Source: an uncultured Gammaproteobacteria bacterium (lineage in GTDB: Bacteria > Patescibacteriota > Patescibacteriia > Magasanikbacterales > UBA922). Taken from it: a DNA stretch of 64,000 nucleotides. Positions 6,542 to 62,033 of this stretch are shown here, one piece after another (positions within the stretch are counted from its first letter, which is position 1; each line of letters opens with the position of its first letter). Location of the stretch: contig CAYQNA010000003.1 of NCBI GenBank assembly GCA_964418775.1, positions 7,307-71,306 of the forward strand, written 5' to 3'. The notes below the pieces were generated by a model, which was not told the DNA's origin, made no database searches, and saw only the letters and a program-made list of their open reading frames with translations. The position numbers were made by a program, and so were the translations under genes.

Positions 6542-6562
6542 ATGGATTTATTTGTCTATATT

Positions 6563-7822
6563 TTACCGCACAATACCAGCCATGACCAGTGGCAAATGCC
6601 ATGGTGCAGTAGCGCGGCCAGCCTGCTTGAACACTTTAGTCCCCTTTTGACCCGTTAAAGCCGCTGCACTATGGACAGTGTGCTTACCAAAACGCTTGGC
6701 TAGGGTATCTACAGCTTCATAAACTTGGCGTAATGCTGGTGCTGTAACCACAGACTCGAACAAATCACCCTGCACAGCATCTGCATCGCTTAATTCCGCC
6801 AACACAACTCCGGTAGCACGATAGGCCTGGCCAGACTTGTGCAAACGAGCAAACACTGGTTTGATCGCATTGATTACATCACGGTCAAACGCTGAAGGAC
6901 GCACGAGCTTAATTTCCATAGCCATAACATTAAAGGCCGTATTTTTGAGAAAAATTGAAACTCGAGCAGCGACCAGGTTATGCTGACGAGCTTTGGCACA
7001 AGCATTCTCAATGTTGCGCACGAGCTCAGCATACACGGCCTGACGATCAGTTCGACCAACTGTGAACGTATGCGTTTTGGAAATCGAAGCTACGGTTGTT
7101 TTTTCTTCAGAAATCACTGGGTATACGCTAACACCTTGCAATTCTTGCCAGATTTCCTGGTGCGGTTTGGAAAAATTGTCACGCACCGCGCCCAAGGATT
7201 GGCCAACAAAATCATACGCAGTAAAAATATTCATGCGACGCATATATTCAGCTGTGCTCGAACCAATCCCCCACACTTGGTCCACCAGAAAGTCGCGTAA
7301 ATACTCAGGCAAATCTTTGCAACTAATCGTTACTAAACCATTTGGTTTATTGCTACCCGAAGCTAACTTGGCCAAAACTTTTGTTGGCGCAAGACCAACC
7401 GACACAGTGATTCCGAGCTCGCGTTGGATTGTATTTTTAACTGTTTCCGCAATCTGTTTGTAGGTTAAACCTTCCACTTTATCTAAGCCGGTAATATCCA
7501 TGAAACCTTCGTCAATACTGTATTCCTCTACCTGGTCAGTAAAACGACGCATGATCGCAAACAAGCGACGTGAGAACAAGCTGTAGGCTTCATAATCGCC
7601 CTCGCACACAGCCAAATCTGGACATAACTGACGAGCTTGCGACACGAGCATGCAACGCTTGACCCCTTTGGCTTTAGCTTCATAACTAAGAGCAGTCACA
7701 ATGCCACGGTCACCGCCAACAACCACTGGACGTCCTTTTAAACTAGGGTGTAAAGCTTGCTCGCAGCTGGCAAAAAATGCGTCGGCATCAATGTGCACGA
7801 TCGCCTTAGGAAATAAATTCAT
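6563..7822 (-). CDS. dinB: DNA polymerase IV (Y-family, DinB)
   Basis: IVHIDADAFFASCEQ...GRPVVVGG...GLD motifs of Y-family polymerases; 20 bp downstream of lexA. Confidence 0.9.
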   Translation of the reverse strand: MNLFPKAIVHIDADAFFASCEQALHPSLKGRPVVVGGDRGIVTALSYEAKAKGVKRCMLVSQARQLCPDLAVCEGDYEAYSLFSRRLFAIMRRFTDQVEEYSIDEGFMDITGLDKVEGLTYKQIAETVKNTIQRELGITVSVGLAPTKVLAKLASGSNKPNGLVTISCKDLPEYLRDFLVDQVWGIGSSTAEYMRRMNIFTAYDFVGQSLGAVRDNFSKPHQEIWQELQGVSVYPVISEEKTTVASISKTHTFTVGRTDRQAVYAELVRNIENACAKARQHNLVAARVSIFLKNTAFNVMAMEIKLVRPSAFDRDVINAIKPVFARLHKSGQAYRATGVVLAELSDADAVQGDLFESVVTAPALRQVYEAVDTLAKRFGKHTVHSAAALTGQKGTKVFKQAGRATAPWHLPLVMAGIVR

Positions 7823-23690: not shown

Positions 23691-24368
23691 CTAAAAAGAT
23701 ACCAATTTCAAATCCAAGTCTGTTTGCACTTCTTCTGGAATCTGCTCCAAAATACTGTTGATATGCGCCTCAATTAAAAGTTGTCGGCTCGTAGTTTCAT
23801 CCAATCCCCGGCTCGCTAAGTAAAATAATTTTTCCTTGTTCAGACGTGTAGTCGTGACGGCGTGTTTACACTGCACATCATTATTACCAATTTCTAATTC
23901 TGGTACGGCAATTACCCGCGCATTGTCGGAAAGTAAAATGGTGTCTGACCGTTCATCACCAGAACAGCCCGGTTGATTTGGTAGTATTTCAATGCGACTA
24001 ATTTGGTGCGCAAAACTTGAACCGCTCAAAATTCCTTTTGATTCCAATCGTGATGTTGTTCGTGGGGCCACGTGAATTACCTTATGGGAAATCCTTAGAC
24101 TATCATTCCCCTGTCCGGCAAATAAGCCAAGTAATTTTACTTCTGCACCCTCGCCCACCAATTCCACCAACACATCGGTTTTGCGTTCAGTGCCCCCATT
24201 ACCAATTTGCAAATCAATCACGGTCAATTTCGCATTCGCCCCAACCCTAAAGACACGCGTAAAAACACCGTTTTCACTGGGTTGCAACACCTGTACGCTT
24301 ACCTGACCAGATTGTAACGTAAATAATTCCATATAATTATCCCACTGACCCCTCCATTTCCAGCTCAA
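23691..24368 (-). CDS. sufD: SufD-like Fe-S assembly protein (short form)
   Basis: Beta-helix repeat pattern and position between sufB and rest of suf genes; overlaps sufB by 32 nt. Confidence 0.55.
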   Translation of the reverse strand: MSWKWRGQWDNYMELFTLQSGQVSVQVLQPSENGVFTRVFRVGANAKLTVIDLQIGNGGTERKTDVLVELVGEGAEVKLLGLFAGQGNDSLRISHKVIHVAPRTTSRLESKGILSGSSFAHQISRIEILPNQPGCSGDERSDTILLSDNARVIAVPELEIGNNDVQCKHAVTTTRLNKEKLFYLASRGLDETTSRQLLIEAHINSILEQIPEEVQTDLDLKLVSF

Positions 24369-25743
24369 TTAATTTATTGAGTTCAATAGCATATTCGAGT
24401 GGCAAGGCTTTGACAATTGGTTCAATAAAGCCGGCGACAACGAGTTGGCGGGCCTGATCCTCGGACAAACCACGGGAACGCAAATAGAAAATTTCGTCAT
24501 CGCCAATTTTTCCCACTGTGGCCTCGTGCGCCATATCTACATCGGCCTGGTCGATTTTCATGGTTGGATAGGTGTTGGAAACTGATGCATCGTCAATGAG
24601 GAGCGCGTCACAATTTACGGCCACGCTTGAATTGGCGGCCTTTGGGGTCACGCGCACGAGCCCACGATACGTGGAAATTCCACCCCCAACCGAAATTGAT
24701 TTGGCTTTGATGGTTGATTTGGTGTCTGGGGCCACGTGAATTGCTTTGGCGCCCGTGTCCTGATTTTGTCCCGGACCGGCAAACGCCACCCCAAGACTGT
24801 CTGAACGCGCTCCGCGACCGCGCAAAATTGAACATGGGTACAGCATGGTCACGCCACTGCCCATGTTGCCATTAATCCACTCAATCACCCCATTTTCATC
24901 AACGAGCGCGCGTTTGGTATTCAGGTTGTACGTATTTTTGGACCAGTTTTCAATGGAATAATATCTGGCGCGTGCGTTTTTATGGACAAAAATTTCCACA
25001 CAGCCGGCGTGGAGCGAACTCGTAGTGTAGCGCGGCGCACTACAGCCTTCGATATATTGGACCTCGGCACCCTCATCCACAATAATCAGGGTATGTTCAA
25101 ACTGGCCGCCACTTTTGGCATTCATACGGAAATAGGCTTGCAACGGCAAATCAACTTTTACGCCCTTGGGCACATAAATAAAGGTTCCACCGCTCCACAC
25201 CGCCGCGTGCAGCATCACAAACTTGTGGTCATTAATTGGTACGCATTGAGTCATGAAATACTTTTGCACGAGCTCTGGATATTCGTGCACGGCCGTATCC
25301 ATGTTTTCAAAAATCACACCTTGTTCGCGCAGTTGTTGCTGAATATTGTGATACACCACGTCACTATCATACTGTGCACCCACGCCAGCCAGAACGTTTT
25401 TTTCGGCCTCGGGAATACCAAGACGATCGAAAGTCTGTTTAATTTCGGCCGGGACATCGTCCCAACTTTTGGCTTCGTTAGTATCGGGGCGCACAAAATA
25501 AATAATTTCGTTGAGTTTAAGACCAGACAAATCCGGCCCCCAACTTGGCATTGGCGCTTGTTCAAATAATTCAAATGCTTGCAGACGCTTTGCCAACATC
25601 CACTCGGGTTCGTTTTTTTGTTTGGAAATTTCAATCACGACCTCGCGCGTTAAGCCAGGTTTGGATTTGTATTTTGACCGTTCTTCGTTCGCATCGTCGT
25701 AAAGCGCGCGGTCTAGATAAATTGTTGGCTTTTGCAGGGCCAT
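24337..25743 (-). CDS. sufB: Fe-S cluster assembly protein SufB
   Basis: SufB core motifs (RGARSDSLGVAFAGPGQ...); start set at MALQKPTIYLD (25743) matching canonical SufB N-terminus. Confidence 0.85.
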   Translation of the reverse strand: MALQKPTIYLDRALYDDANEERSKYKSKPGLTREVVIEISKQKNEPEWMLAKRLQAFELFEQAPMPSWGPDLSGLKLNEIIYFVRPDTNEAKSWDDVPAEIKQTFDRLGIPEAEKNVLAGVGAQYDSDVVYHNIQQQLREQGVIFENMDTAVHEYPELVQKYFMTQCVPINDHKFVMLHAAVWSGGTFIYVPKGVKVDLPLQAYFRMNAKSGGQFEHTLIIVDEGAEVQYIEGCSAPRYTTSSLHAGCVEIFVHKNARARYYSIENWSKNTYNLNTKRALVDENGVIEWINGNMGSGVTMLYPCSILRGRGARSDSLGVAFAGPGQNQDTGAKAIHVAPDTKSTIKAKSISVGGGISTYRGLVRVTPKAANSSVAVNCDALLIDDASVSNTYPTMKIDQADVDMAHEATVGKIGDDEIFYLRSRGLSEDQARQLVVAGFIEPIVKALPLEYAIELNKLIELEMEGSVG

Positions 25744-25744
25744 A

Positions 25745-25773
25745 TTGACAAAATGATGATTTTTGGCTATACT
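25745..25773 (+). promoter_or_regulatory. Consensus sigma-70 promoter TTGACA-17-TATACT reading into GC-rich island
   Basis: Perfect -35, 17-nt spacer, TATACT -10, located 2 nt after sufB start codon on the opposite strand. Confidence 0.55.
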
Positions 25774-25795
25774 CCGCAGTTCGTTGCCTGAAAGG

Positions 25796-25954
25796 ATGTC
25801 TATGCCGAACACTGCGTACATGGGGGCGCCACCCCTTCCCAACTGGGTGAACACCGTAGTGGGACTCATCACGAGCCCGCTACAGACCGCCCACTACCTC
25901 CTCCAAGATCTGTGGGCATGGATCACCAACCTATTTTCCGGAGGTGAACCCTAG
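25796..25954 (+). CDS. Possible small ORF (52 aa, amphipathic) at start of GC-rich island
   Basis: AAAGGA then ATG; GC-rich codons; followed by structured repeat copy 1. Confidence 0.25.
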   Translation: MSMPNTAYMGAPPLPNWVNTVVGLITSPLQTAHYLLQDLWAWITNLFSGGEP

Positions 25955-26001
25955 AGAAAAGCAGTGTCTGGTGGAGATCAACTAAGGGCGACGAACAACC
26001 G

Positions 26002-26068
26002 AACCACCCGACACTGCGTCTCTGCAGAAATATTTCTGACGAGGCGTGGAGGCGGGTGGTTTTGGTTT
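26002..26068 (+). repeat. Structured 66-nt repeat, copy 1 (long imperfect hairpin CCACCCG...CGGGTGG followed by TTTTGGTTT; terminator-like)
   Basis: Direct repeat of 26935-27001; inner palindrome CAGAAATATTTCTG. Confidence 0.6.
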
Positions 26069-26118
26069 ATTTGACAGCCGTGGATTTCTTGGAGAGAATC
26101 TGTGTCACAGGAGGCGTC

Positions 26119-26343
26119 ATGTTCTTTTACAAGCAACTCGAGCTAGTCGGTCCCAAGCACCACGAACTCATTCTCGGGGCCTTTAAGGAAAGGCCTCCGC
26201 TACCACTGTTCCAAACCGCCATCGTCATCAAACCAGAATATGTCGGCGCTCTGTGCTCGGTCTGCCAAAACTCGGCCGTGGACCGGAACCCCGAAGGCTT
26301 GCGCTGCCCCAAGTGCGGAGCCGAGTGGCCTAACCCGCCTTGA
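26119..26343 (+). CDS. Small Cys4 zinc-ribbon protein (74 aa)
   Basis: AGGAGG 5 nt before ATG; CSVCQ-x13-CPKCG; GC-rich. Confidence 0.45.
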   Translation: MFFYKQLELVGPKHHELILGAFKERPPLPLFQTAIVIKPEYVGALCSVCQNSAVDRNPEGLRCPKCGAEWPNPP

Positions 26344-26397
26344 CAAAAGGCCGGTTTTCCGCTTTACTTGGGCCAGTTTTCCACCACAAAGGGTCTA

Positions 26398-26649
26398 ATG
26401 GCACGAGTTCGAGCATTCGCCGCACTTGCCCTGATTCTTAACCAGCGACGGGTGGAGAAGCCCGCAACCAAGGAACCAAACCGGTATTTCCCACCCAAAG
26501 GTGAGCTGTTCCAGGCCTGCAGTCAGTGCCCAGGGACAACCGACCTTTACCTCGAGACACAAAACGGCCAGGAAATCGTCATCTGCGGGGATTGCGGCGG
26601 CAGGGTGCTGCTACTAACCGCCGATGACGGTGTTAACTGGGTGACCTGA
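26398..26649 (+). CDS. Small Cys4 zinc-ribbon protein (83 aa)
   Basis: CSQCPG-x20-CGDCGG; hydrophobic N-terminus; GC-rich. Confidence 0.4.
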   Translation: MARVRAFAALALILNQRRVEKPATKEPNRYFPPKGELFQACSQCPGTTDLYLETQNGQEIVICGDCGGRVLLLTADDGVNWVT

Positions 26650-26656
26650 GGAGATC

Positions 26657-26887
26657 ATGAACACGCAAGATCTGATCGACTGGCTTCCGTTCCCCCTTAA
26701 CGTAGCCCTGTTCGGGGCCGAGTTGATCGCAGGCGGCGTCCTGCTGACCGGTATGGTCTTCGGCGCCAGCCTGGCGCTGCAGGGAACTGCCTTGACCGAC
26801 GAGGTCAAGGAGGTTCTGAAGGCGATCGGTGCTTTTTTCCAGTGGCTCTTTGAACTGCCCGGCACGGGCGAGGAGGTGAACGCCTGA
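26657..26887 (+). CDS. Small single-TM membrane peptide (76 aa)
   Basis: GAGGAG 5 nt before ATG; TM helix LNVALFGAELIAGGVLLTGMVFGASLAL; acidic C-terminus. Confidence 0.45.
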   Translation: MNTQDLIDWLPFPLNVALFGAELIAGGVLLTGMVFGASLALQGTALTDEVKEVLKAIGAFFQWLFELPGTGEEVNA

Positions 26888-26934
26888 TGGGCCGCAGTGT
26901 TGGGTACAAACCCCACGATCCGGCCCCCACCCAC

Positions 26935-27001
26935 AACCACCCGACACTGCGTCTGTTGAGAAACATTCTCACCAGGCGTGGAGGCGGGTGGTTTTGGTTT
27001 T
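26935..27001 (+). repeat. Structured 66-nt repeat, copy 2 (same outer stem and T-tail as copy 1, inner stem GAGAAACATTCTC with compensatory changes)
   Basis: Direct repeat of 26002-26068 with covarying inner-stem bases; abuts stop of convergent nifS-like gene. Confidence 0.6.
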
Positions 27002-28229
27002 AGGGGTTACCGGCTTGCATGACGCGTACGCCCGCAACAATGCCAGGCAAATATTTGAGGACATAATCCAGGTCCTCTTTTTTTGTCTCGCGACCAATCG
27101 TAAACCGCACACTGGATTTGGAGTCATCGAATTTTAATCCACAGGCCGTGAGCACATGCGACGCATCGTCACTATCAGTTGCACAGGCCGAACCTGTGGC
27201 CGCGATAATTCCATACGCATCCAAATACAATACTAATGTCTCGCCTTCGAGTCCGACAAAACGAACATTCAAATTATTGGCAAGGCGCTGTTCAGTTAAT
27301 TCAGGTCCATTCAAAAATGCATTGGGAATTTTTTTGCTGATTTGTTGCCACAAATAATTACGCAATTTAGTTTGACGTGCATTTTCTTTCTCGGCATTCT
27401 TTTGGACTAATTCGAGCGCACTCGCAAACCCAATAATTCCAGACACATTCTCGGTACCACTGCGAAGTTTATTTTCCTGTCCACCGCCAAGCATAATTGG
27501 TGCAATTGGCGTGCCACGACGAACAAACAAGGCGCCTACGCCTTTGGGCCCATAAATCTTGCTCGAATTAATCGTCATGAGGTCGACATGCAAACGCTCC
27601 ACCTGCAAATCAAGCGCACCCGCGGCCTGGCACGCATCAGTGTGAAAATATGGATATTGCGTTTTGTGCTGCTTACGATATTTCAAAAGTTCGCGACCCA
27701 ATTCGGCAATTGGATTAATCGTCCCAATTTCATTGTTCGCATACATAATCGAAATCAAGCGTGTTTCGGGGCGGATTGCGTTCATTATTTCTTTCACATT
27801 AATTTCTCCGCGTTCATTCATCGGCACATACGTTACTTCCACTCCCCACTTCTCCAATTCACGTAATGGCTCGAGCACCGAGTGGTGTTCGATTGCCGTG
27901 GTAATAACATGGATCTTCTCGGGTGAATTATTTTTCAAAGCTTTAACAACACCGGTAAGCGCTAAATTATTCGCTTCTGTTCCACCACTCGTAAACGTAA
28001 TACAATCTGGATGTGTAAACAAAATTTCCGCCACACGCGCACGCGCTTGTTCAACAGCCTCGTGATTCGCGCGCCCGAGTGAATACAACGCCGATGGATT
28101 CGCAAAACGCTTGGTCCAAAATGGCGCCATAGCTTTGACCACACGCGGATCAGTCGGGGTTGTCGCCGCATGGTCCAAGTAGACCACGCGCTTCTTGATT
28201 GGTTTCGGTGGAAACTTCATAATTGCCAA
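27000..28229 (-). CDS. Cysteine desulfurase, NifS/IscS family
   Basis: VYLDHAATTP, SSKIYGPKGVGALFV PLP-lysine region, class V aminotransferase. Confidence 0.85.
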   Translation of the reverse strand: MAIMKFPPKPIKKRVVYLDHAATTPTDPRVVKAMAPFWTKRFANPSALYSLGRANHEAVEQARARVAEILFTHPDCITFTSGGTEANNLALTGVVKALKNNSPEKIHVITTAIEHHSVLEPLRELEKWGVEVTYVPMNERGEINVKEIMNAIRPETRLISIMYANNEIGTINPIAELGRELLKYRKQHKTQYPYFHTDACQAAGALDLQVERLHVDLMTINSSKIYGPKGVGALFVRRGTPIAPIMLGGGQENKLRSGTENVSGIIGFASALELVQKNAEKENARQTKLRNYLWQQISKKIPNAFLNGPELTEQRLANNLNVRFVGLEGETLVLYLDAYGIIAATGSACATDSDDASHVLTACGLKFDDSKSSVRFTIGRETKKEDLDYVLKYLPGIVAGVRVMQAGNP

Positions 28230-44169: not shown

Positions 44170-44976
44170 TTAGAATTCTTTCTGAATATATAAATTCTCA
44201 ATTTCCTCAGCATCATTGGAATTTAAAATTAACTGCCTCCAAAAATCATACGGAGTATACCCTTTTTTATTCTCTAATGAATCCTTGGCATGAGGTACAC
44301 CATGAGCTACAGTGTTCTCCATATCAAAAGGTTCTGACCAAGCAAACATTGGATGGTCATTATTCAGCAATTCAACAAACTCAGGGAACTTTTGTGGAAA
44401 ATTTGCAAAGAAATTATGGTAGAAAGTTACCGGTAGATCAATTAATCCCAACTCTTCGTGAGTGCTATGTGTAGTAAACGCGCGATTACCCGCATAAACC
44501 TCATGCAAGGCCTCGCCAAATCCAGCAAAACGATCCACATACTTGAGGAACTTTGCCTCAGTTGTTTGAAGCTCTTGGGACTCCTTTAAAAGATCTTCGT
44601 AGGAATAATTCATTAGTTTGTACGGAAAGCGAGCAGACATTGCCGCGATTGCGTTTTGCTCTTGATTAGCAACTTCAGCAAGCTGGGCTGGTGCCATTTT
44701 AATTTTGTGACCTGCCTGCACATCGCCCATCACAATTTCCATATCATCGTGAACTGCGGCCATTAATTGAACTTTTGTTGAATCAAAACTACTGCCGAAT
44801 ACCTTTTCTGCAAGTGGCAAAATACTCTGGAGCAACCAAAGAACATGTTTAGAATGAGTAAACAAATTAGTACGATAATACATCGGACTATAAATGTGGT
44901 AACGCGTTACCTGGCGCAGGTCGTGCTCGCGGCCTTCAAAGTTCGCAAAAATCTCAGGATAGTTTATTTTTTCCAT
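44170..44976 (-). CDS. HD-domain phosphohydrolase (YfbR-like)
   Basis: HSKHV...AAVHDDMEIVMGD HD motif. Confidence 0.5.
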   Translation of the reverse strand: MEKINYPEIFANFEGREHDLRQVTRYHIYSPMYYRTNLFTHSKHVLWLLQSILPLAEKVFGSSFDSTKVQLMAAVHDDMEIVMGDVQAGHKIKMAPAQLAEVANQEQNAIAAMSARFPYKLMNYSYEDLLKESQELQTTEAKFLKYVDRFAGFGEALHEVYAGNRAFTTHSTHEELGLIDLPVTFYHNFFANFPQKFPEFVELLNNDHPMFAWSEPFDMENTVAHGVPHAKDSLENKKGYTPYDFWRQLILNSNDAEEIENLYIQKEF

Positions 44977-46078
44977 AGACTTGTTTGGAGAGTAGCATGA
45001 TTGGGAACACAAAAAACAGTACTGCCATAATCAAAAATGCTTCGCGGAGGTGACCTGTATACACAATTACTGATAAAGAAACGAGCGTAATTGTACGGCC
45101 AATGTTCAAATATAATTCGCGTGAGATCCAGGTAATTGACGCATTAGTAACATTATCAAGCAAAATATTGGAACGGATTGGGTTAAGCAGATTGTTCAGA
45201 AATTGATACGCAATAATGATAATCACGGCCAATCCTAGTGACTGCACAAAATATAGTGAAGTCATAAGGATACCGATCACAACGGACAATGGCCAAATAA
45301 ACTCCAGACGTTTTTTGGTTCGGTCAGAAATTCGGGCCAACCGGAGTGATAGCACCACTGACACCAGTGCAATCATGGACAACACTTGCCCAAAGTTAAA
45401 TTCACTTTTTATAAACGTGAGTAAATACAGCGCAATTAAAAGGCCGGATGTACTTTGCAATGCACCGTCAAGCATGGAAATCACACGAAAATTTTTGATG
45501 TGGTTAGTGATCTCAGCACGTGTATACGGATATTCTACGCGTTTAACCCATACCGTCAGAATCAAAGCCAGCACTAAAATCGCCAGGCCAATTGCAATAA
45601 ACGTGTGCAAACCAAATTGGCTCATAATCCAACCGCCCGTCATTGGCGCGAGTACACTGACCGCGCTACCAATCCCCCAATACAGAGCCATGCGTTGCAT
45701 TTTCTTTTCCTGGTGTGTATTCTCGAAAAACAAAATATTGTATGGCACGTAAAACAAGATGCCACCGCTGAGTTTGAGGAGTGTGTACGGAAACAAAATA
45801 TAGAGCGGCGCAATGGGGGTCAAAAGTAATGGCAGGCTAAGTAAAACCAGGCCCAATCCAAGCTGCATGCCACGCTGAGTGGTAAAACGACGCTTACTAA
45901 GTAAAAACAATGCACTGAGCCCATACCCTAGCCCCTCGGCCAAAAGCACGAGCCCAAAATTCAAATTATTTTTAACAAAATACGCAAACAAAATCGCCAA
46001 AAAACCAGACTGCACTGTGCTATAGGCAATGAGCACCCACCAGACTTGAAATTTTGACTTCAAATTCATAATGCACAT
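44954..46078 (-). CDS. MFS transporter
   Basis: 12 predicted TM helices. Confidence 0.7.
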   Translation of the reverse strand: MCIMNLKSKFQVWWVLIAYSTVQSGFLAILFAYFVKNNLNFGLVLLAEGLGYGLSALFLLSKRRFTTQRGMQLGLGLVLLSLPLLLTPIAPLYILFPYTLLKLSGGILFYVPYNILFFENTHQEKKMQRMALYWGIGSAVSVLAPMTGGWIMSQFGLHTFIAIGLAILVLALILTVWVKRVEYPYTRAEITNHIKNFRVISMLDGALQSTSGLLIALYLLTFIKSEFNFGQVLSMIALVSVVLSLRLARISDRTKKRLEFIWPLSVVIGILMTSLYFVQSLGLAVIIIIAYQFLNNLLNPIRSNILLDNVTNASITWISRELYLNIGRTITLVSLSVIVYTGHLREAFLIMAVLFFVFPIMLLSKQVYGKNKLS

Positions 46079-46102
46079 ACGATATCACAAACCCTGGAAA
46101 AA

Positions 46103-46127
46103 CAAAAAGACCTTGTGGGTCTTTTGT
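46103..46127. terminator. Terminator hairpin AAGACC-TTGTG-GGTCTT + T-run, downstream of intron-containing tRNA
   Basis: Seen in sequence. Confidence 0.5.
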
Positions 46128-46134
46128 ATACGAG

Positions 46135-46550
46135 CTCGACGGGTCGGATTCGAACCGACGACCAATTGGTTACACGTTATCCTTGCTTTCGCAAAGCGTG
46201 GACTATATCTTCACCCACGTCATAATCTGGTCAAGCCAGAAACGTTAGGGTGCGAAGCGCTTCCCCCGATAAATCGAGGTACTCCCATATGGGATAGTCT
46301 CTGAACCTTCAATGCCGTCCAGACAGTCATAAAGACAAATCCTTCTCAGCAAAGCTTGGCTGCAGATTGCCATATCCCGAACAAGTCGGGCTTTAGGTTT
46401 CCTGATCCGGTTAACCGGATTTTTCCAAATAAATGGAAAACAGTTCACTTCGTTTTTCATCCGAGCATTACTGCCCGGAGCTGCTATTCAGCTCTCTCGC
46501 GAGAGGAGCCGTAGCTACAGCCAACTGCTCTACCACTGAGCTACCGTCGA
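46135..46550 (-). tRNA. tRNA gene (U1-A72, G73) interrupted in the anticodon loop by a group I intron; spliced anticodon loop CUGUUAA (Asn, GUU) favoured, CUUGUAA (Thr, UGU) not excluded
   Basis: Intact acceptor/D arm (TCGACGG TA GCTC AGTGGTA GAGC) and T arm/acceptor (GTCGG TTCGAAT CCGAC CCGTCGA G) separated by ~340 nt carrying group I core elements; coordinates +/-2. Confidence 0.7.
46173..46516 (-). ncRNA. Group I intron (approx. boundaries) within tRNA
   Basis: Conserved R element GGTTCAGAGACTA and S element AAGATATAGTCC (P7 pairing GACTA/TAGTC), Q-like AATCTGCAGCCAAG; candidate IGS GCAGCU pairing exon GGCUGU with U.G at splice site; ends in G. Confidence 0.65.
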
Positions 46551-46635
46551 ATGATTGGTTTAAAGAACTGGCAAAAGTATATCAAAATCTTAAGAGGGTG
46601 TCAAGCACGGCAAAAAGGCAGAATTTTCTCTTTAC

Positions 46636-47106
46636 TTAGCCTATTTTAATCAAAAAATCAGGAATGATTCCCAAGGCAATGTAACGCGCCTGTAATTCTG
46701 CTGGTAAATATTGGAAATCGCGAATTAAACCACGGCACAACAGACTGCCGCACTCACACGTCATTTCATTCGCATCATTGTACATGGTAGTGGAATAATC
46801 GTAAGTGATTTGTTCACCCGCACCAATGTCTTTGATAGCAATTAAATCCGCCAGCTCGCCCACCACGCGATACCCGGCATTTGGGTCGCACGAGTGATTG
46901 ACATAATCATCAACCTCACCCGACGAACCTAAAAATGTGCGCTCCCCGATTTGCAAACAATGCTCGTCCTCGTATGAGCCATCCTCAAAATCATCATAAT
47001 CCAAAATTGGCCCCTTGGCTTCGAGGATTTTCTCACCTTTGGCAAACGGCCTGGCCGCAAACACGCCCTGGCCATATTTGGTTTGTTTGGTGATAATATC
47101 GGGCAT
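46636..47106 (-). CDS. SET-domain protein (putative lysine methyltransferase)
   Basis: NHSCDPN, ITYDY and post-SET CECGSLLCRG motifs; start set at MPDIITK because track ORF (TTG 47175) would overlap tRNA-Gln. Confidence 0.65.
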   Translation of the reverse strand: MPDIITKQTKYGQGVFAARPFAKGEKILEAKGPILDYDDFEDGSYEDEHCLQIGERTFLGSSGEVDDYVNHSCDPNAGYRVVGELADLIAIKDIGAGEQITYDYSTTMYNDANEMTCECGSLLCRGLIRDFQYLPAELQARYIALGIIPDFLIKIG

Positions 47107-47129
47107 ATAAAAACAGAGGTTGTCCTCTG
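47104..47129. terminator. Terminator hairpin CAGAGG-TTGT-CCTCTG followed by U-run on minus strand
   Basis: Immediately downstream of tRNA-Gln. Confidence 0.45.
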
Positions 47130-47136
47130 CAAATAG

Positions 47137-47207
47137 TTCCGGGGCAAGGATTCGAACCTCGATACGCAGCTTCAAAGGCTGCTGTCCTACCTTTAGACGA
47201 CCCCGGA
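47137..47207 (-). tRNA. tRNA-Gln (anticodon UUG), U1-A72
   Basis: Cloverleaf: TCCGGGG/CCCCGGA acceptor, anticodon arm GCAGC-CTTTGAA-GCTGC, T loop TTCGAAT. Confidence 0.85.
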
Positions 47208-48810: not shown

Positions 48811-48876
48811 ACGCTAGTGCGTACAGTATAGCACATTTTTTACAAAACAAAAAAGGGCCGATTAAGGCCCTTTATA

Positions 48877-49281
48877 TTATTCTTGTTCCTCGAGCATTTG
48901 CAAAATGCGATTGAGCTTACCATTAATTTCATCGAGCTGTTGTTTGACGTTGCTATCAACCTTATCAGCCCCATATGAACGTTGAGGGCGCTCACTAAAG
49001 CGTGGACGGTCGAAATTCTTTGGACCAAATTTGGCGCCACTGTCTTGCTTACCAAAACAAGTGCTGCACAAAACTGGTTTGCGACCGTTTGGACGGAATG
49101 GCACTTGGCACTCATTGCCACATTGGCCGCAAGTCGCGTCATACATCATGGCCGAGCGAGCAGGACGGTCCCCGCGTTCAGCGCGGTCAGACTTTGGATA
49201 GCGAGGCTTTTTAAAACCCCACTCCGTTGACTTGCTTTTGCCACCACTTTTGCCACGGCCCACTTTGTCAAAATTAATCAT
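48877..49281 (-). CDS. Basic zinc-ribbon protein (C-x2-C-x17-C-x2-C) with C-terminal coiled coil
   Basis: CGQCGNECQVPFRPNGRKPVLCSTCF; Lys/Arg-rich N-terminus. Confidence 0.4.
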   Translation of the reverse strand: MINFDKVGRGKSGGKSKSTEWGFKKPRYPKSDRAERGDRPARSAMMYDATCGQCGNECQVPFRPNGRKPVLCSTCFGKQDSGAKFGPKNFDRPRFSERPQRSYGADKVDSNVKQQLDEINGKLNRILQMLEEQE

Positions 49282-49468
49282 AATTGAGCTAAAAAATAAT
49301 CAGATAAGCCAACACTATAGCCTAGTATACCCTAAAAAGCAAGGGGTAACAAAAAACCGTCCAACCTCCTGCCCTGCTCTTGAAATTCAGAAACAAAGCA
49401 CGGTATTGGACGGTTCTCTGACAACCACCTCACGTGTCGCTCGCCAACTGTTGCAGTCGGGCGAACGA

Positions 49469-49948
49469 TTAGTAGCCCTTGGAGGGCGTGATAACGGCGT
49501 CGTTGACGCGGATGATCCCGCCTTCAAGGATCTCCGCAACAATGCCACCGCGCTCGGTGAACGCCTTCCGGAAGTCACCCTTGCCGGAGAGCTTGCCCGG
49601 AAGCGGGCAGGGGTCGCAGTACTTGATGCCGCGGAACTTTGCCTCTCCGACCTGGAATTCCACGTTAACCAGGTCAATGAGCTCGAAGCGCTCCTCACCC
49701 TCGGCCGCATCAACGATGAGGTTGCGACGACTGTCGGCGTATTCGAACTTCGTTCCCTCGAAGAAGCAGCCTCGGATGAGCGTGACCTGCCGTCGGCCCA
49801 CGTTCCCCTTGTTGAATCTCCCCTTCCCCGTGCAGTACCGGTCCCCCTCGAGGCCCTGGCCAGCGACGGCCCGGACCTCATCAACAAGACGCATCGGTGC
49901 ACCCGCTGCGGGCGCGATGCAGACTGCGATCACTTTTCCCTCAGGCAT
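49469..49948 (-). CDS. MOSC-domain protein (YiiM-like); GC-rich (~62%) compositional outlier
   Basis: GKVIAVCIAP...GLEGDRYC...RRQVTLI...RRNLIV...YCDPC pattern typical of MOSC; overlapping track ORFs on other frames are GC artefacts. Confidence 0.6.
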   Translation of the reverse strand: MPEGKVIAVCIAPAAGAPMRLVDEVRAVAGQGLEGDRYCTGKGRFNKGNVGRRQVTLIRGCFFEGTKFEYADSRRNLIVDAAEGEERFELIDLVNVEFQVGEAKFRGIKYCDPCPLPGKLSGKGDFRKAFTERGGIVAEILEGGIIRVNDAVITPSKGY

Positions 49949-50011
49949 TTTCTCACACCCCGTGAGTGGTTTACAGGGATACTAACGAAACACCGACTCA
50001 AAGTCAATCGC

Positions 50012-50039
50012 TTGACCAACCTCATGGGGCCTGTATACT
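50012..50039 (+). promoter_or_regulatory. Promoter TTGACC-16-TATACT with ATG 7 nt downstream (leaderless mRNA for 50046 gene)
   Basis: Seen in sequence. Confidence 0.45.
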
Positions 50040-50045
50040 AATCGC

Positions 50046-53304: not shown

Positions 53305-53862
53305 TTAACCCTGCACCTGAATTTCGGCCGCACCACCACCATCGCAAATGATGGTGTATGTGCCAGCGGTTGGGGCTTTGGCAATGACATAGTCATAGCC
53401 CAACACCGAGAAGGATTGCTTGCCCATTTTAAAGGTGTGCTTTTCGCTATCGCGATTATCGAGCATGAGCGGCAGGCCGGCCTTAAGGGTCAGACGGCTT
53501 GGGTTGGCCTGGCAGTTAAGGAATTGAAGACGATATTGGTAGGTCCCCAGGGCCTTTTGGTAGGTTTCGGCGCTCTTGACCGTGCGAGGGGCTTCCTGGC
53601 CGCCCACGGCCTTTCTAAGGGCCTCCAAAGGGGTTGTATTAGCATTTGGCACCACCTGGCGCTGTTGTTGGCCGGCTGGCTGTGTACCCGTGGCCTGAGT
53701 GCCCGAAGAGGCCTCCACAGGGGTAGTAGAGGTTAAACTGGTCTCTTGGACCGTCTGGACCGCCAGGTCAGCCTTTTTGGTACAGCCCCAACCAACCAGG
53801 GTTACCAGGGCTAAAACGCTTGCGATACGAAAAACCGGGGATGACATAAGTAGAAACAGCAT
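53305..53862 (-). CDS. Putative lipoprotein (lipobox LVGWGC) with low-complexity linker and C-terminal ~100-aa domain
   Basis: Signal peptide + Cys; moderately GC-rich. Confidence 0.4.
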   Translation of the reverse strand: MLFLLMSSPVFRIASVLALVTLVGWGCTKKADLAVQTVQETSLTSTTPVEASSGTQATGTQPAGQQQRQVVPNANTTPLEALRKAVGGQEAPRTVKSAETYQKALGTYQYRLQFLNCQANPSRLTLKAGLPLMLDNRDSEKHTFKMGKQSFSVLGYDYVIAKAPTAGTYTIICDGGGAAEIQVQG

Positions 53863-53912
53863 ACCACAACTCCCCTTTTGGAGCAAGTCTAAAGCGGTAT
53901 ATTTGGCTTAAT

Positions 53913-56160: not shown

Positions 56161-57300
56161 TTACTCAAGCCAGGCACGAAGGCCGGACAGTTGGTGAGTC
56201 CAATTGAATTCAGCGCGCATGCGGGCCTGGCCAGCGCGGCCGAGTTGTTCGCAAAGTGCTGGGTCATGGAGCAAATTCACAATTGCCGCACTAATTTCGG
56301 CTTTTTGATTATACACATCGAAAATAAAACCGGTTTGATTGTGTTTAACACCCTCCTCCACCCCACCACTTTTACCCGCAATAACCGGCAGTCCAACGGC
56401 GGCGGCTTCCAAAAACACCAAACCAAGCCCTTCTTCTTGTCCATTATCCGGATGTGTGAGGAGGACAAAAATGTCTGCCAAATGATAGTACAAATTTAAA
56501 TCTACGTGCGCAACTTCGCCCACAAAGCGCACGGAATTTTGCAAGCCGTGTTTTTGAATTAGGTTTACGACTTCAGCAGTTTTGGGACCACTGCCCACAA
56601 TAATCCACACGGTGTTCGGGTCGTCTTTGAGCACAGTTTCCAAAATTGGAATCAGGTGTGGAAAACCTTTACCATCAACCAAACGCGCGACCGTAAGGAG
56701 CACACGCTTACCTTCGAGTGCGAACTTAGTGCGAACTCTTTCCAAATCAATTGATGCAGGCGGTGTGTAAAATAATTCATCAGGGCATGGGTAAATCACG
56801 CCAGATTTAGTTTGAAATTCAGGGACGCGGGCGAGGGCGCGCGACAAAAGCGACTGACTATTAAACACGACGGCGTCAGCACGGCGCAATACTTGGCGCA
56901 GACGCTTGGTTTTCCAATTCGTGCGCGTCGCGAGTGCAATGTCTGTGCCATGCGAGAACACGACAAATTTAACTTTGAGCAAACGCGCAGCGAGTTGGGC
57001 CACATACCCAACCGGCAACACATGATGAACCAAAATGCGTTCGACGTTTTCTTTTTTTACCAATTGTTTAACCTCGCGCCACAAACGCCACCAACGAGGC
57101 CACACAAATGCAGGATACAAAAATGGTGCACGAATGACACGGTACGTCTGAGCCTTGTCCCATTCTTCATTATCATGCGCGGGTGGAGCAAGGACAATTG
57201 TCTGTTCGGCTGGCAGCGCACTTGCGAGCGCGTGCACATACGTGGCAATCCCACCGACCTGTGGTGGATATTCAAGTGAAATTATAAGAGTTTTTTTCAT
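56161..57300 (-). CDS. Glycosyltransferase family 4
   Basis: EGLGLVFLEAAAVGLPVIAGKSGG (E-x7-E motif). Confidence 0.8.
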   Translation of the reverse strand: MKKTLIISLEYPPQVGGIATYVHALASALPAEQTIVLAPPAHDNEEWDKAQTYRVIRAPFLYPAFVWPRWWRLWREVKQLVKKENVERILVHHVLPVGYVAQLAARLLKVKFVVFSHGTDIALATRTNWKTKRLRQVLRRADAVVFNSQSLLSRALARVPEFQTKSGVIYPCPDELFYTPPASIDLERVRTKFALEGKRVLLTVARLVDGKGFPHLIPILETVLKDDPNTVWIIVGSGPKTAEVVNLIQKHGLQNSVRFVGEVAHVDLNLYYHLADIFVLLTHPDNGQEEGLGLVFLEAAAVGLPVIAGKSGGVEEGVKHNQTGFIFDVYNQKAEISAAIVNLLHDPALCEQLGRAGQARMRAEFNWTHQLSGLRAWLE

Positions 57301-58769
57301 ACAGTAGGCTGGGTTGGGCGACGGTACAATTTGCTAAATAATTGTTGCCAATGTGTTGGTGCAATCACGCGAAGCACGACAATAAAGAGCGCGTAAATCG
57401 CTGATCCAATGACACCCACGGCAATAAAATGCAATTGATTCCGCAAAATATAGAGCGCCGCTGACATGGCTACACCAGCAAAGATAATTTTTATGATGGC
57501 GAGTAAAATCGTACCGTGTTTAATCGCCGCGTCACGCGGCATCAGCATGTATCCACCTGCAGTCAAAACCACATTACCAATGAGCGTGGCCCACGCTGCG
57601 GCCACAGCGCCAAAATGCGGAATAAAATACCAATTCAAACCAGCGTTTATGACGAGCACAATACCGGTTAGCATAGTTTGACGGGTCTGACGGTTGCTCG
57701 CATTGAGCAAGGCCCCAACTGGGAACGAGGCAAAGGCCCACGCCAAACTAAGGCCCAAAATTTGCAACGGAACAATTGCACCGCGATACTCTTCGCCAAA
57801 CAAAAACAGAGTAAGTGGTTCGGCTAACCAATATAAACCTAATGTCACTGGCAGTGCAATGAGCGTCAAATACACAAAACTATCGGTAAACGCTTGCGCA
57901 CATTTAGCTTTGTTCGTTTGGTAAAATTCACTGAGGCGTGGATACAGAGCCGCGACCAATGCAAGTGGAATAAATTGAAACGCAAACGTGATTTTTGACG
58001 GTGTGCTGTACAGCGCAGTCGCGGCATTGCCCGCGAGACGGTTGAGCATGAGCACGTCGAGGTATGAATAAATGCGGTTAAAAATTGCGGCCAAAGCAAA
58101 TGGAATTACGGCAATTACCAAACTTTTAAAATGTGAGCCGGGCCAACGCCATTTGACCACCACACCGGCGCCACGCAATTGGTACCAGGCATACAGCGCG
58201 TTAGACATAGACGCGACCAAAAAACCAACCAACAAAAGCATGACCGGACCGCGCCACAGCCACAGAGCCGCGCCACCAATTACAAGCGTAATGAATTGAC
58301 TCGCAACCATACCAACCGCTTCATACTTTAATTCCCCGCGCACACGCAGCGCGCCATACAATGTTAGGTGCAGCGAATCAAACAACATTGTGAGGCCAGA
58401 CACTGCAGTTAGCAGCAAAAATTCCGGTCCAAACCCAGACCAATGTACGGCGAGCAATAAACCAACATATGAGAGTAGGCCAGTTACCAACTTTACGGTG
58501 AGCATATTGCCCAATGCAACCGGTAGCCGGCTTGGGTCACGGGCCGTGTCACGAATAAACACGTTTGTCAGTCCCAAATCTACAAACACTACAGCAATCG
58601 TTGTTGTGGCGAGCACTGACGTATACAAACCAGTTTGTTCTGGTCCGAGCAGACGCGCGACTAATGCAAAATACACGAGCGAAATCACCTTTTGCCCAAT
58701 CGAAGCCGCGAGCATAAAGCTCGTGTTTTTGAACAGTGAAGCCATAGAAATATGGCTTAATAATACCAT
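57297..58769 (-). CDS. MOP-superfamily polysaccharide flippase (Wzx-like)
   Basis: 12-14 TM, polysaccharide biosynthesis protein pattern; start set at MVLLSHIS (58769) because upstream extension runs through a terminator and the GC-rich insert. Confidence 0.6.
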   Translation of the reverse strand: MVLLSHISMASLFKNTSFMLAASIGQKVISLVYFALVARLLGPEQTGLYTSVLATTTIAVVFVDLGLTNVFIRDTARDPSRLPVALGNMLTVKLVTGLLSYVGLLLAVHWSGFGPEFLLLTAVSGLTMLFDSLHLTLYGALRVRGELKYEAVGMVASQFITLVIGGAALWLWRGPVMLLLVGFLVASMSNALYAWYQLRGAGVVVKWRWPGSHFKSLVIAVIPFALAAIFNRIYSYLDVLMLNRLAGNAATALYSTPSKITFAFQFIPLALVAALYPRLSEFYQTNKAKCAQAFTDSFVYLTLIALPVTLGLYWLAEPLTLFLFGEEYRGAIVPLQILGLSLAWAFASFPVGALLNASNRQTRQTMLTGIVLVINAGLNWYFIPHFGAVAAAWATLIGNVVLTAGGYMLMPRDAAIKHGTILLAIIKIIFAGVAMSAALYILRNQLHFIAVGVIGSAIYALFIVVLRVIAPTHWQQLFSKLYRRPTQPTV

Positions 58770-58800
58770 CAATCCCCTGCCCTGTACATAATATAAACTA

Positions 58801-58834
58801 AAAACAAAAACAACTCTTGGTAAGAGTTGCTTTT
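58801..58834. terminator. Terminator CAACTCTT-GGTA-AGAGTTG with U-run on minus strand (ends 2OG-oxygenase transcript)
   Basis: Seen in sequence. Confidence 0.5.
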
Positions 58835-58927
58835 GACTGACTCCGACGGGCTGCGGTGGTTCCCAAAGGAGCCAGCGGCGTATGCCGTCGGAGATGCGCG
58901 CGAAGCGCCGTCCTCCTGTTGCTGATG

Positions 58928-60031
58928 TCAAATCAGCGCCGTCATGTCCCCGTCGGTGATGGGGATGAGCTCATCGCCCGCGACCTCGCGGGTGGCGAGA
59001 CCAATGTCGATGAGGACCTCCCAGCTGCGCGTGCCCGCGAGCGTGGGCGGATACCTCTGTGACACATTGTCATGGTCCACGGGCGCCTCCTCCATGACGC
59101 CCATGACCGCGTCGGTATGCAGATGCAGGAAGAGCGAACGTGCAACACGGAACGGCGAACGTCCATCCGCCACTGCCCCGATCACGGAGTTCGCCGCTCG
59201 CTGCGTGCACGAGACCTCGTGGTACCCCGCGAGAAAGTACCCACCGGTCACGTACTCGAGTTGCTGTCCGACCTGCACCAGGAAGCACCCGGGCGGGATC
59301 GAGACCTCGAGCTTGGTGCCGTCCCGAAGCCAGATCACCAACCCCGGGAACGTCGAGCGGTCGTGCGCCGTCAGGAACCCGAAGTCGTTGTGGCAGGCGT
59401 TGATGACGTCGCCCACCTTCAACGTGCTCAGGTCAATGGCGTTGAGGGCCAGGATCGTTGCACCGTCGATGAGTCGATGCGTGAGCCGTCCCGCCTTGAG
59501 CCCGAGCCCCCGCTCCACCAGCATCGTGCAGGTGAGAGAGGTGTTGATGAGCACCTGAGCCTGCCGGTCCATGAGGGACGGCCACAGGTCGGTGAACACG
59601 GCCGGCACGACCTGTTCCTCGCGCTTGTTCAGCTTGGGGAACCGCGTCTTGGCCGGCTGCGTACCCGCGCGCCACATGAACCGCATCTTGGGATCCGCGA
59701 ATCCGGCGGGGCACACGGTCGGGTAGTTCTCAGGGTTGAGCGTCCGGAGGAACTCCGCGCACTCGACCGCCTTCTCGACGCCCGGGGGCGTCAGTCCGAC
59801 CTGGTACCCGAGCTCCTCACGCACATCTGACGCCAGGAGCTCCCACGGCTGCGCGAAGTACTGCTGAGCCATGGTCCGGACCTGCACGTCCTCGCCAGAC
59901 GTGAGAACGCGCGGATCCCGCACGATGACCGCACCGAACCGGTGCAGGGCATCGACGAGCGTGCGCGCCGTGTCTAGGTCATCCTCACCCGCCAACGTGC
60001 TGGTGAGGTCGATGATGGGAAGATCCTTCAT
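58928..60031 (-). CDS. 2OG-Fe(II) oxygenase family protein (isopenicillin N synthase-like); GC-rich (~63%) outlier
   Basis: N-terminal DIOX_N-like LPIIDLTS...FGAVIVRDPRV, H-x-D (CHNDFG) iron-binding motif; GAGGTG SD before MKDLPI start; many overlapping GC-artefact ORFs. Confidence 0.65.
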   Translation of the reverse strand: MKDLPIIDLTSTLAGEDDLDTARTLVDALHRFGAVIVRDPRVLTSGEDVQVRTMAQQYFAQPWELLASDVREELGYQVGLTPPGVEKAVECAEFLRTLNPENYPTVCPAGFADPKMRFMWRAGTQPAKTRFPKLNKREEQVVPAVFTDLWPSLMDRQAQVLINTSLTCTMLVERGLGLKAGRLTHRLIDGATILALNAIDLSTLKVGDVINACHNDFGFLTAHDRSTFPGLVIWLRDGTKLEVSIPPGCFLVQVGQQLEYVTGGYFLAGYHEVSCTQRAANSVIGAVADGRSPFRVARSLFLHLHTDAVMGVMEEAPVDHDNVSQRYPPTLAGTRSWEVLIDIGLATREVAGDELIPITDGDMTALI

Positions 60032-60110
60032 TGTCACCTCTTGCGCTTGAGACCACTGCGGTCTGGCTTTTAAATACCATAAACAAGCCAAAAACGCAAC
60101 TAAAAAAATT

Positions 60111-60148
60111 TGAAAACAAAAAATCCCCCACCACATGGGCGAGGGATT
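60111..60148. terminator. Terminator AATCCC-N16-GGGATT + U-run on minus strand downstream of rpsI
   Basis: Seen in sequence. Confidence 0.5.
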
Positions 60149-60169
60149 CTTGATTTTGAAAATTGCGGA

Positions 60170-61325: not shown

Positions 61326-62033
61326 TTACGCCTCTTTAGAGGTTTCAGACGCTTCAAGAATAATACTGAAGTGGTTCATCAGGATCTTAGTCGTTTCACG
61401 CACTGCTTCGCGAGGCATGATCGTACCATTGGTTTCAATGGTGAGCGTCAATTTTTCGTAGTCAGTAATATCGCCAACGCGGGTGTTTTCCACATCGTAG
61501 CCAACATCCTTAACCGGGGAGTAGAAGGAGTCTACGAGCATGGTGCCCAAGTCGAGATTCTTACTGTTCTTTTCCGCAGCTGGGATATAGCCCAAGCCGC
61601 GACCTACGATAACTTCCATGGAGAAAGTTTTCTTCGCGTCAGTAACAGTTGCCAAAACGGCGTCCTGATTAATAATTTCCACATCAGCGTTCTTTTCAAA
61701 ATCAGCCGCAGTGACTGGGCCAAGACCCTTTTTAGTCAATGTCAGCTTTACTGGCGCGTCGCTGTGGGACACAACGGCCAACTGCTTCAAGTTCAACAAA
61801 ATATCAATGACATCTTCCTGCACACCGTCAATGCCAGCAAATTCATGCTGCACACCCTCGATCTTCACAGCTTCAACCGCTGCGCCTGGGATGGAGGACA
61901 AGAGCACGCGGCGGAGCGCATTGCCCAAAGTTGTACCATAGCCCTGGTGACATGGAGTCACTACCAACTTACCAACCAATGGATTTTCAGTTGTCTGAAA
62001 CTCGATCGTGGACGGAATGAGAATGTGTTCCAT
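61326..62033 (-). CDS. rpoA: DNA-directed RNA polymerase alpha subunit, N-terminal domain only (no alpha-CTD)
   Basis: Alpha NTD motifs (GYGTTLGNALRRVLLSSIPG, EVIVGRGLGY); ends ~235 aa at ...TKILMNHFSIILEAS with stop 14 nt before rplQ. Confidence 0.85.
   Translation of the reverse strand: MEHILIPSTIEFQTTENPLVGKLVVTPCHQGYGTTLGNALRRVLLSSIPGAAVEAVKIEGVQHEFAGIDGVQEDVIDILLNLKQLAVVSHSDAPVKLTLTKKGLGPVTAADFEKNADVEIINQDAVLATVTDAKKTFSMEVIVGRGLGYIPAAEKNSKNLDLGTMLVDSFYSPVKDVGYDVENTRVGDITDYEKLTLTIETNGTIMPREAVRETTKILMNHFSIILEASETSKEA

Follow-up and report, generated by a model that had tools for sequence, protein, structure and literature searches.

The 64,000-nucleotide stretch analyzed here (the window; positions 7,307 to 71,306 of contig CAYQNA010000003.1, assembly GCA_964418775.1) carries at 58800–60111 what is probably a horizontally acquired, self-contained accessory gene module, placed between the terminator of the ribosomal protein gene rpsI and the promoter of a polysaccharide flippase gene (Table 1). 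The module consists of a leader with promoter-like boxes, an inverted repeat and a Shine–Dalgarno (SD) sequence, one intact oxygenase gene, a GC-rich tail and a terminator. The transfer is of an ordinary kind, and what it brought is an accessory oxygenase gene. The host is a Magasanikbacteria-like bacterium of the candidate phyla radiation (CPR), and it is placed in the Candidatus Magasanikbacteria/Patescibacteria group because the best named relatives of its RpoA protein, all 66–77% identical, belong there.

The segment is set apart by its composition. Mean GC content is 47% across the window and reaches its maximum, 65.8%, in the kilobase 59001–60000. The GC-rich core (58840–60067) has 65.3% GC, compared with 46.7% in the other 1.2-kb windows (standard deviation (sd) 3.1, maximum 57.6; z = 6.0), a deviation that bears out the GC-rich oxygenase segment reported in a preliminary description of this DNA. 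The coding sequence (CDS) of the oxygenase has 65.4% GC, and its GC content at third codon positions (GC3) is 0.858, against 0.472 ± 0.061 in 65 host open reading frames (ORFs), which makes it the sole strong GC3 outlier in the window (z = 6.3). Long ORFs on the opposite strand and in other frames across the island are the usual shadows of GC-rich DNA. With a GC3 of 0.86, the coding DNA came originally from some high-GC organism.

Table 1. Features of the island and its flanks, in coordinates of the window
Feature	Position	Strand	Basis
Whole inserted segment, 1,312 bp	58800..60111	-	Junction alignments against the empty site of L004/L020; composition step
Predicted Fe(II)/2-oxoglutarate oxygenase gene, 367 amino acids (aa) plus stop	58928..60031	-	ORF list, homologs, profile, predicted structure
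AT-rich leader travelling with the module	60032..60100	-	Conserved in the window, L001, L002 and L021
GC-rich 3' tail of the module	58836..58927	-	Alignment of copies
Intrinsic terminator of the module (stem-loop 58805–58835, T-tract 58800–58810)	58800..58835	-	Folding
rpsI, ribosomal protein S9, 136 aa	60170..60580	-	ORF list; Pfam Ribosomal_S9 match of the L003 gene, which is identical
Intrinsic terminator of rpsI (stem-loop 60119–60151, T-tract TTTTTTGTTTTC ending at 60112)	60112..60151	-	Folding and relatives
Flippase promoter-like site (TGTACA, 17 nucleotides (nt), TG-n-TATTAT)	58760..58788	-	Intact 3' of the insertion
Wzx/MOP-type polysaccharide flippase, 482 aa, start ATG 58745	57297..58745	-	Pfam Polysacc_synt, 1e-25; start conservation
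GT4 glycosyltransferase, overlapping the flippase stop (host flank)	56161..57300	-	Pfam Glycos_transf_1, 3e-38

Related contigs show the site in both its empty and its filled state. In five of them, four of which are sequence-distinct (L004, L016, L017/L018 and L020), rpsI is followed by the flippase gene after 115–193 bp. These empty sites have the same terminator and the same sequence upstream of the flippase gene, an undisturbed spacer and no trace of the island, and their flippase genes are 72–77% identical to that of the window at the nucleotide level. L004, whose genes are closest to those of the window, is a GTDB representative metagenome-assembled genome and bears the record label “uncultured Gammaproteobacteria”. 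The closest relative, L001, comes from another sample (flippase 83% identical in nucleotides and 94% in amino acids) and has a filled site at the same place, with an island of 65.5% GC and GC3 0.88 and an oxygenase that differs from that of the window by 15% at the protein level. The insertion into the rpsI–flippase spacer that had first been proposed is thus borne out by the synteny comparison with the five empty sites, and presence and absence are most simply read as one acquisition by an ancestor that the window and L001 have in common.

Two other accounts of the site bear on the same comparison. The gene could be ancestral, lost in the relatives and high in GC for some intrinsic reason, which we regard as very unlikely. 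The preliminary description had named a relative with the same gene, place and composition as telling against its proposal, and L001 is, in form, such a relative; the insertion is rescued by the four sequence-distinct empty sites, with their undisturbed spacers and no remnant of a lost gene. A GC3 6 sd away from that of host genes, third-position changes directed towards AT, the same module at a different locus in another contig, L021, and a lower synonymous divergence (dS) in the island than in its flanks likewise argue against an ancestral gene. The second account, an assembly or binning chimera that joined GC-rich foreign DNA to a CPR contig, is extremely improbable, as both junctions recur, with divergence, in L001 from a different sample, the left one is also reproduced in Logan assembly L003, and the flanks line up base for base with the empty sites. 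What speaks for it is a possible k-mer chimera at the rpsI end of L001, a sign that the data are not free of such artefacts. At that end (L001 1–300), the rpsI part is 99% identical to that of L016, an empty-site genome, the flippase is closest to that of the window, and the switch to window-like sequence comes directly after a 34-nt stretch common to all three. A recombination breakpoint at the rpsI 3' end of L001 was considered and not used, as a k=31 assembly chimera explains the pattern equally well.

The module is also found elsewhere, in a two-gene form. L002, a 1.7-kb contig, opens with this AT-rich leader, which is succeeded by a GC-rich gene encoding a 160-aa protein, an oxygenase gene (72% identical) and the same 3' tail. 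In L021, a 36%-GC gene for an NYN-domain protein, of which no homolog was found within the window, lies on the opposite strand and is followed by the same leader, a gene for a 161-aa protein (GC3 0.75) and an oxygenase gene (GC3 0.81), whose product is 86% identical to that of L001 and 81% to that of the window. Leader, genes and tail appear to travel together, in at least two genomic contexts, and we infer that the module has passed as one unit between CPR genomes. The first gene is absent from the window and from L001. In L002 and L021, it has CAAGGAG at both ends, and the window copy probably lost it by recombination between these two ribosome-binding regions. The 160-aa partner belongs to no Pfam family, has no known relatives and is predicted to be a membrane-anchored beta-sandwich protein; its AlphaFold2 (AF2) model is of moderate quality only, with a mean predicted local distance difference test score (pLDDT) of 71, and gave no significant structural match.

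The host flank 5' of the island is the string infA-rpsM-rpsK-rpsD-rpoA-rplQ-rplM-rpsI, whose last gene, rpsI, shares 92–96% nucleotide identity with its relatives. The rpsI terminator (14-bp stem, −22.1 kcal/mol, z = −4.3) is host sequence, as its hairpin and tail also occur in L004, L020 and L001 and are thus found at empty sites too. The boundaries of the insert are ambiguous by about 11 nt because TTTTTGTTTT is carried at both ends, with a direct-repeat spacing of 1311–1312. On the 3' side follow genes for the Wzx-type flippase, the GT4 glycosyltransferase, DivIC and a PpiC/SurA-like protein. The “gtgtacag” box of the flippase promoter-like site is kept at all empty and filled sites, and the flippase start (MASLFKN...) is common to six relatives, with a stop codon just upstream of it in L004 and an alternative in-frame ATG at 58769 in the window. 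The mechanically called flippase ORF (57297–58931, 544 aa) begins at a TTG and reaches upstream across the module terminator into the island. This extension is an artefact, as had been recognized; the accompanying claim that the GC-rich sequence displaces the real start of the flippase gene is not borne out, since the insertion left the conserved ATG, the flippase gene and its signals unharmed and the excess length concerns the open frame alone. Compared with the NCBIfam MOP-flippase models, the flippase scores far under all curated cut-offs (best 44.7 versus 273 bits).

The oxygenase gene has expression signals of its own. Its minus-strand ORF spans 60136 to 58928 and ends in TGA (58928–58930); the upstream ATG at 60136 falls within the stem of the rpsI terminator, and the start kept in all homologs is ATG 60031 (MKDLPIIDL...). 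The leader preceding it, TATGGTAWTWAARAGSC-AGACC-N5-GGTCTCAA, contains a −35-like TTGCGT (60094–60099), a 17-nt spacer, a TG (60078–60079), a −10-like TATTTA (60071–60076), the inverted repeat AGACC-N5-GGTCT (60050–60064) and the SD sequence GAGGTG (60035–60040). Common to the four copies are TTGC(G/T)T, a 17-nt spacer ending in TGG, TATTTA (TAATAA in L001) and the SD sequence, and the inverted repeat has an invariant stem and a different loop in each. This conservation and the context suggest that the leader acts as a promoter. In L021, transcription must begin within the 81-nt leader because the upstream gene there lies on the opposite strand, and the window copy would be transcribed on its own from the leader, as it is bracketed by terminators. 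The co-linear repeats D1 and D2 raised the possibility that the leader arose by duplication of the native flippase promoter. This was rejected as the main reading: the resemblance is weak, with 75 of 4410 windows scoring equally, and the leader occurs at another locus.

Downstream of the gene, the tail (CATCAGCAACAGGAGG...GGCGCTTCGCGCGCA) begins with a stretch of about 41 nt after the stop (58887–58927 on the minus strand; L001 1538–1578, L002 1679–1720) that is 91–98% conserved among three copies. It thereby outdoes the coding sequence (74–85% identical) and is able to form a small GC hairpin. The terminator of the module has a 14-bp stem (−15.4 kcal/mol, z = −4.5), which differs between the window and L001, with pairing kept by four double (compensatory) changes. 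Known RNA families were found neither in the leader nor in the tail. The GAGGTG and the two terminators of the preliminary description are all present, the terminators within a few bases of where it had put them.

The protein is predicted to be a soluble Fe(II)/2-oxoglutarate (2OG)-dependent oxygenase of the isopenicillin N synthase (IPNS)/DOXC structural class (Pfam DIOX_N plus 2OG-FeII_Oxy). As a single sequence, it reaches 21.7 bits with Pfam 2OG-FeII_Oxy (PF03171), under the 23-bit cut-off, and a search of NCBIfam with it gave no match. At the family level, 33 of 60 members match PF03171 at E ≤ 1e-3, and a profile of the 60 sequences compared with 2OG oxygenases in the Protein Data Bank attains E = 5e-26 to 3OOX and 1e-18 to the thymine dioxygenase T7H. 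The AF2 model (pLDDT 96.4) confirms, as a predicted structure, the double-stranded beta-helix fold, with T7H as the best structural match at an identity of only 17%. The Fe(II) triad H214, D216 and H271, conserved in 59, 60 and 59 of the 60 family members, aligns to those of 3OOX and T7H, and R295, at the position that binds the 2OG C5 carboxylate in the RxS motif, is present in 59 of 60. The serine of this motif (Ser297), found in 51 of the 60, is alanine in the clade of the window protein, which also has a clade-specific 20-residue C-terminal extension. By these residues, the enzyme would bind Fe(II) through H214, D216 and H271 and 2OG through R295, and would use O2 to hydroxylate or oxidize a small soluble metabolite.

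The earlier assignment as an IPNS-like oxygenase accordingly holds for fold and class, by profile and predicted structure, with a single sequence that stays under the Pfam cut-off; the HxD...H facial triad is present and conserved on alignment. Orthology to IPNS proper was not found. The nearest solved structures are those of Neurospora T7H (5C3P), Caulobacter CC_0200 (3OOX, function unknown) and the Pseudomonas ethylene-forming enzyme (5LSQ). From the solved IPNS/DOXC enzymes, the window protein differs by its low identity (only 14–20%), the alanine in the RxS motif and the C-terminal extension. The term “tailoring” enzyme is unsupported, as no substrate is transferable from homology.

Homologs of the protein were sought by a word-indexed search of 5.8 G proteins and by an exhaustive HMMER search of 1.84 G cluster representatives with a profile. 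The former returned five proteins only, the latter 2,191 clusters at E ≤ 1e-3, of which 268 reach E ≤ 1e-30. There were no matches in the GTDB species representatives, in JGI metagenome contigs (searched with tail DNA and protein) or in IMG/VR (searched with protein and leader DNA), and a literature search found no relevant papers and no mention of the sample accessions. Members of the wider family include Chlamydomonas eustigma GAX84440, MMETSP and EukProt transcripts, a protein from Sanchytrium, one from Parcubacteria bacterium Gr01-1014_13 (TSC84742), one on a 1.34-Mb bacterial contig and one on a 1-Mb contig that looks picoeukaryotic and has genes for kinesin and TMEM18. With an “isopenicillin N synthase-like dioxygenase” subfamily, whose members are uncharacterized, the window protein shares full-length homology at 30–39% identity and the motifs YQVG-TP, DPK-RF-WR and HxD...AG-HEV. 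In a rough neighbor-joining tree with no support values, the island clade sits on a long branch and groups with the two members whose source contigs proved bacterial (the others in that branch are unplaced), apart from the algal/protist branch.

These searches bear on the source of the gene. Had this genome received the gene recently and without intermediary from a high-GC donor, for example an actinobacterium, this would fit the GC3 of 0.86, the little amelioration and the bacterial look of the SD-linked two-gene layout in L002 and L021. Such a direct transfer is nevertheless unlikely: outside the clade, no protein among the 1.84 billion representatives exceeds 39% identity, and the GTDB species representatives contain nothing comparable; the leader and terminator are AT-rich, the terminator has the T-rich tail usual in the host, and a copy at a second locus has this leader too; and the island is common to L001, from which it has already diverged by 15%. 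An actinobacterial or any other named donor, as suggested in the preliminary description, is therefore unsupported, given that the nearest protein outside the four-member clade is 39% identical. An immediate source in another CPR genome is likelier than one straight from a high-GC organism, as the AT-rich leader is combined with GC-rich genes and is found with them at the L021 locus.

Divergence between copies suggests both an age and a degree of constraint for the acquired module. Between the window and L001, the oxygenase gene has a dS of 0.43 and a ratio of nonsynonymous to synonymous divergence (dN/dS) of 0.22, compared with a dS of 1.17 and a dN/dS of 0.03 for the flanking flippase gene and 1.22 and 0.07 for the flanking GT4 gene. 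Over 284 codons shared by the four copies, dS is 0.47–0.87 and dN/dS 0.15–0.22; with a dS of 0.57, the L021 copy is about as close to that of L001 as the window copy is. The island copies thus seem younger than the flanking host genes, which fits a later spread between lineages, and we give this point moderate weight. With L002 as outgroup, third-position changes from G/C to A/T outnumber the reverse by 18 to 4 in the window and by 17 to 9 in L001. The gene is in slow amelioration: its acquisition is not very recent, yet it is far from equilibrated. The earlier word “recent” therefore stands in a relative sense only, with the foreign composition on its side and, against it, an island that L001 shares at 15% protein divergence and a dS of 0.43.

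By the same values, the oxygenase is under purifying selection, weaker than that on its neighbours. An intact but functionally irrelevant passenger gene, drifting to decay, would account for a dN/dS of 0.19–0.22 that is 3–7 times that of the flanking genes (0.03–0.07), for the loss of the first gene, for the Ser297 to alanine change and for the rarity of the clade. We consider it quite unlikely, as each of the six pairs gives a dN/dS far under 1, the catalytic residues are intact, the ORF is free of frameshifts and stops in all four copies, and the terminator has been maintained by compensatory changes.

As to how the module entered, neither a recombinase ORF nor a tRNA target, insertion sequence (IS) element or terminal inverted repeats were seen in or beside the island. 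The most likely route would be entry without a dedicated recombinase, by microhomology-assisted illegitimate recombination at the terminator T-tract after DNA uptake. A 10-nt repeat is present at the ends of the island, TTTTTGTTTT at both ends in the window and TTTTTGTTTA at both ends in L001, matching the spacer type of L001. The motif TTTTTGTTTW is the usual terminator tail in the window, with 14 copies against 2.35 expected (for example 46099–46108, 48844–48853, 58801–58810 and 60113–60122). The end repeat (T/T in the window, A/A in L001) was not relied on as a target-site duplication, being such a common terminator tail; it may reflect a target duplication, a microhomology that served illegitimate recombination, or no more than the presence of two terminators.

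The module resembles two kinds of known elements in part. With small horizontal genomic islets, it shares atypical GC content and codon usage, presence/absence variation, location in an intergenic spacer by conserved genes, and amelioration, and it differs from them in that integrase, tRNA target, IS element and terminal inverted repeats are all absent and in having its own conserved leader and terminator, which travel along. Like integron gene cassettes, it is a compact one- or two-gene mobile unit with a conserved non-coding 3' element; unlike these usually promoterless cassettes, it has a promoter-like leader and is inserted at a terminator rather than at attI. No attC-like core sites were recognized by eye in the 3' tail, and no intI was seen in the immediate neighbourhood.

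For the role of the enzyme, the neighbours in the window are uninformative because they reflect the landing place of the module. The leading guess, a tentative and rather doubtful one drawn by analogy, is that the substrate may be a pyrimidine base or nucleoside in salvage. Three hints point this way: a pyrG neighbour in L011, nucleoside phosphorylase and uracil phosphoribosyltransferase (UPRTase) genes in L012, and the structural match to a thymine dioxygenase. In L011 (VMGB01000001, from Parcubacteria bacterium Gr01-1014_13), the homolog at 6001–7397 lies 37 nt after pyrG, with glycan genes nearby, and in L012 (GCA_964596525.1, the 1.34-Mb contig) the homolog at 6001–7056, 38% identical, is transcribed divergently from a nucleoside phosphorylase gene (PNP_UDP_1), with the UPRTase gene close by. 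The L011 homolog (34–35% identical) and the 81-aa ORF that follows it have 46–48% GC in a neighbourhood of 37–40% GC and adjoin sugar-transferase and epimerase genes; they may go back to a separate, earlier uptake of this enzyme family into a CPR genome. The L012 homolog lies about 5 kb from rplQ-rplM-rpsI, with cytochrome P450 and glycoside hydrolase family 1 genes near.

Several observations weigh against the reading of the island as a self-contained, laterally spread module with a functional enzyme. Among 15 billion proteins, only four members of the clade were found, with the next best 39% identical, which leaves the origin undefined. L002 and L021 are short metagenomic contigs with no host assigned, and their placement in the CPR is suggested by the leader and the low-GC flank of L021. 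A consensus promoter scan did not call the leader promoter, whose −10-like hexamer ends in A. The 10-nt repeat says little about how integration took place, and codon bias may account for part of the lower dS of the island. The change of Ser297 to alanine makes 2OG dependence less than certain, and the suggested pyrimidine link stands on two neighbourhoods of homologs of 34–38% identity, which are weak hints.

A more far-reaching version, which we consider rather improbable, would see the island as one copy of an undescribed recombinase-free mini-module (leader, 160-aa gene, oxygenase gene and tail) that spreads among Patescibacteria at terminator T-tracts, brings its own promoter and, through its O2-dependent oxygenase, gives episymbionts of minimal and mostly fermentative metabolism a new activity, either in scavenging, for example pyrimidine salvage, or in host interaction.

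Other parts of the window contain further features. A milder GC-rich patch (25900–27000, 55–67% GC) lies between a SufB-like gene (24337–25872) and a cysteine-desulfurase-like gene (27000–28229) and holds only small Cys-rich ORFs (CxxC...CxxC, 93–95 aa), for which neither Pfam nor Rfam gave a match; a second foreign segment or genes for zinc-ribbon mini-proteins are possible explanations. Two ORFs of about 56% GC, above the host mean, at 49232–50041 (+) and 53305–53886 (−), encode 269 and 193 aa and have no Pfam match. A tRNA gene with a group I intron lies at 46130–46555 (−), with an Rfam Intron_gpI match at 46180–46456 (54.5 bits). The flanks of the intron read as tRNA halves with the acceptor stem TCGACGG...CCGTCGA, followed by a terminator; ARAGORN gave no call. 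This gene is flanked by genes for a SET-domain protein (46639–47175 (−); Pfam SET, 3.6e-15) and a major facilitator superfamily transporter (44957–46078 (−)). SET-domain proteins are uncommon in CPR genomes. RpoA (61329–62033 (−)) has 235 aa and comprises the N-terminal and insert domains only (PF01193, PF01000); its approximately 120 best homologs (230–290 aa) do likewise, so that the alpha C-terminal domain seems to be missing across the lineage.

For annotation, these results correct the start of the oxygenase gene to 60031 and that of the flippase gene to 58745. As CPR genomes are tiny and their owners dependent on other cells, each accessory gene that is kept is informative. Here, a cleanly delimited gain, documented by filled and empty sites, has probably added an O2-dependent enzyme that is under purifying selection and belongs to a very rare clade of a subfamily shared with algae and a few bacteria. 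The unit that carries it, with one or two genes and a putative promoter, would be able to move between loci and lineages with no visible recombinase. If the substrate is indeed a pyrimidine, the module would have added a salvage step to CPR metabolism; otherwise, it represents an ordinary case of horizontal transfer.

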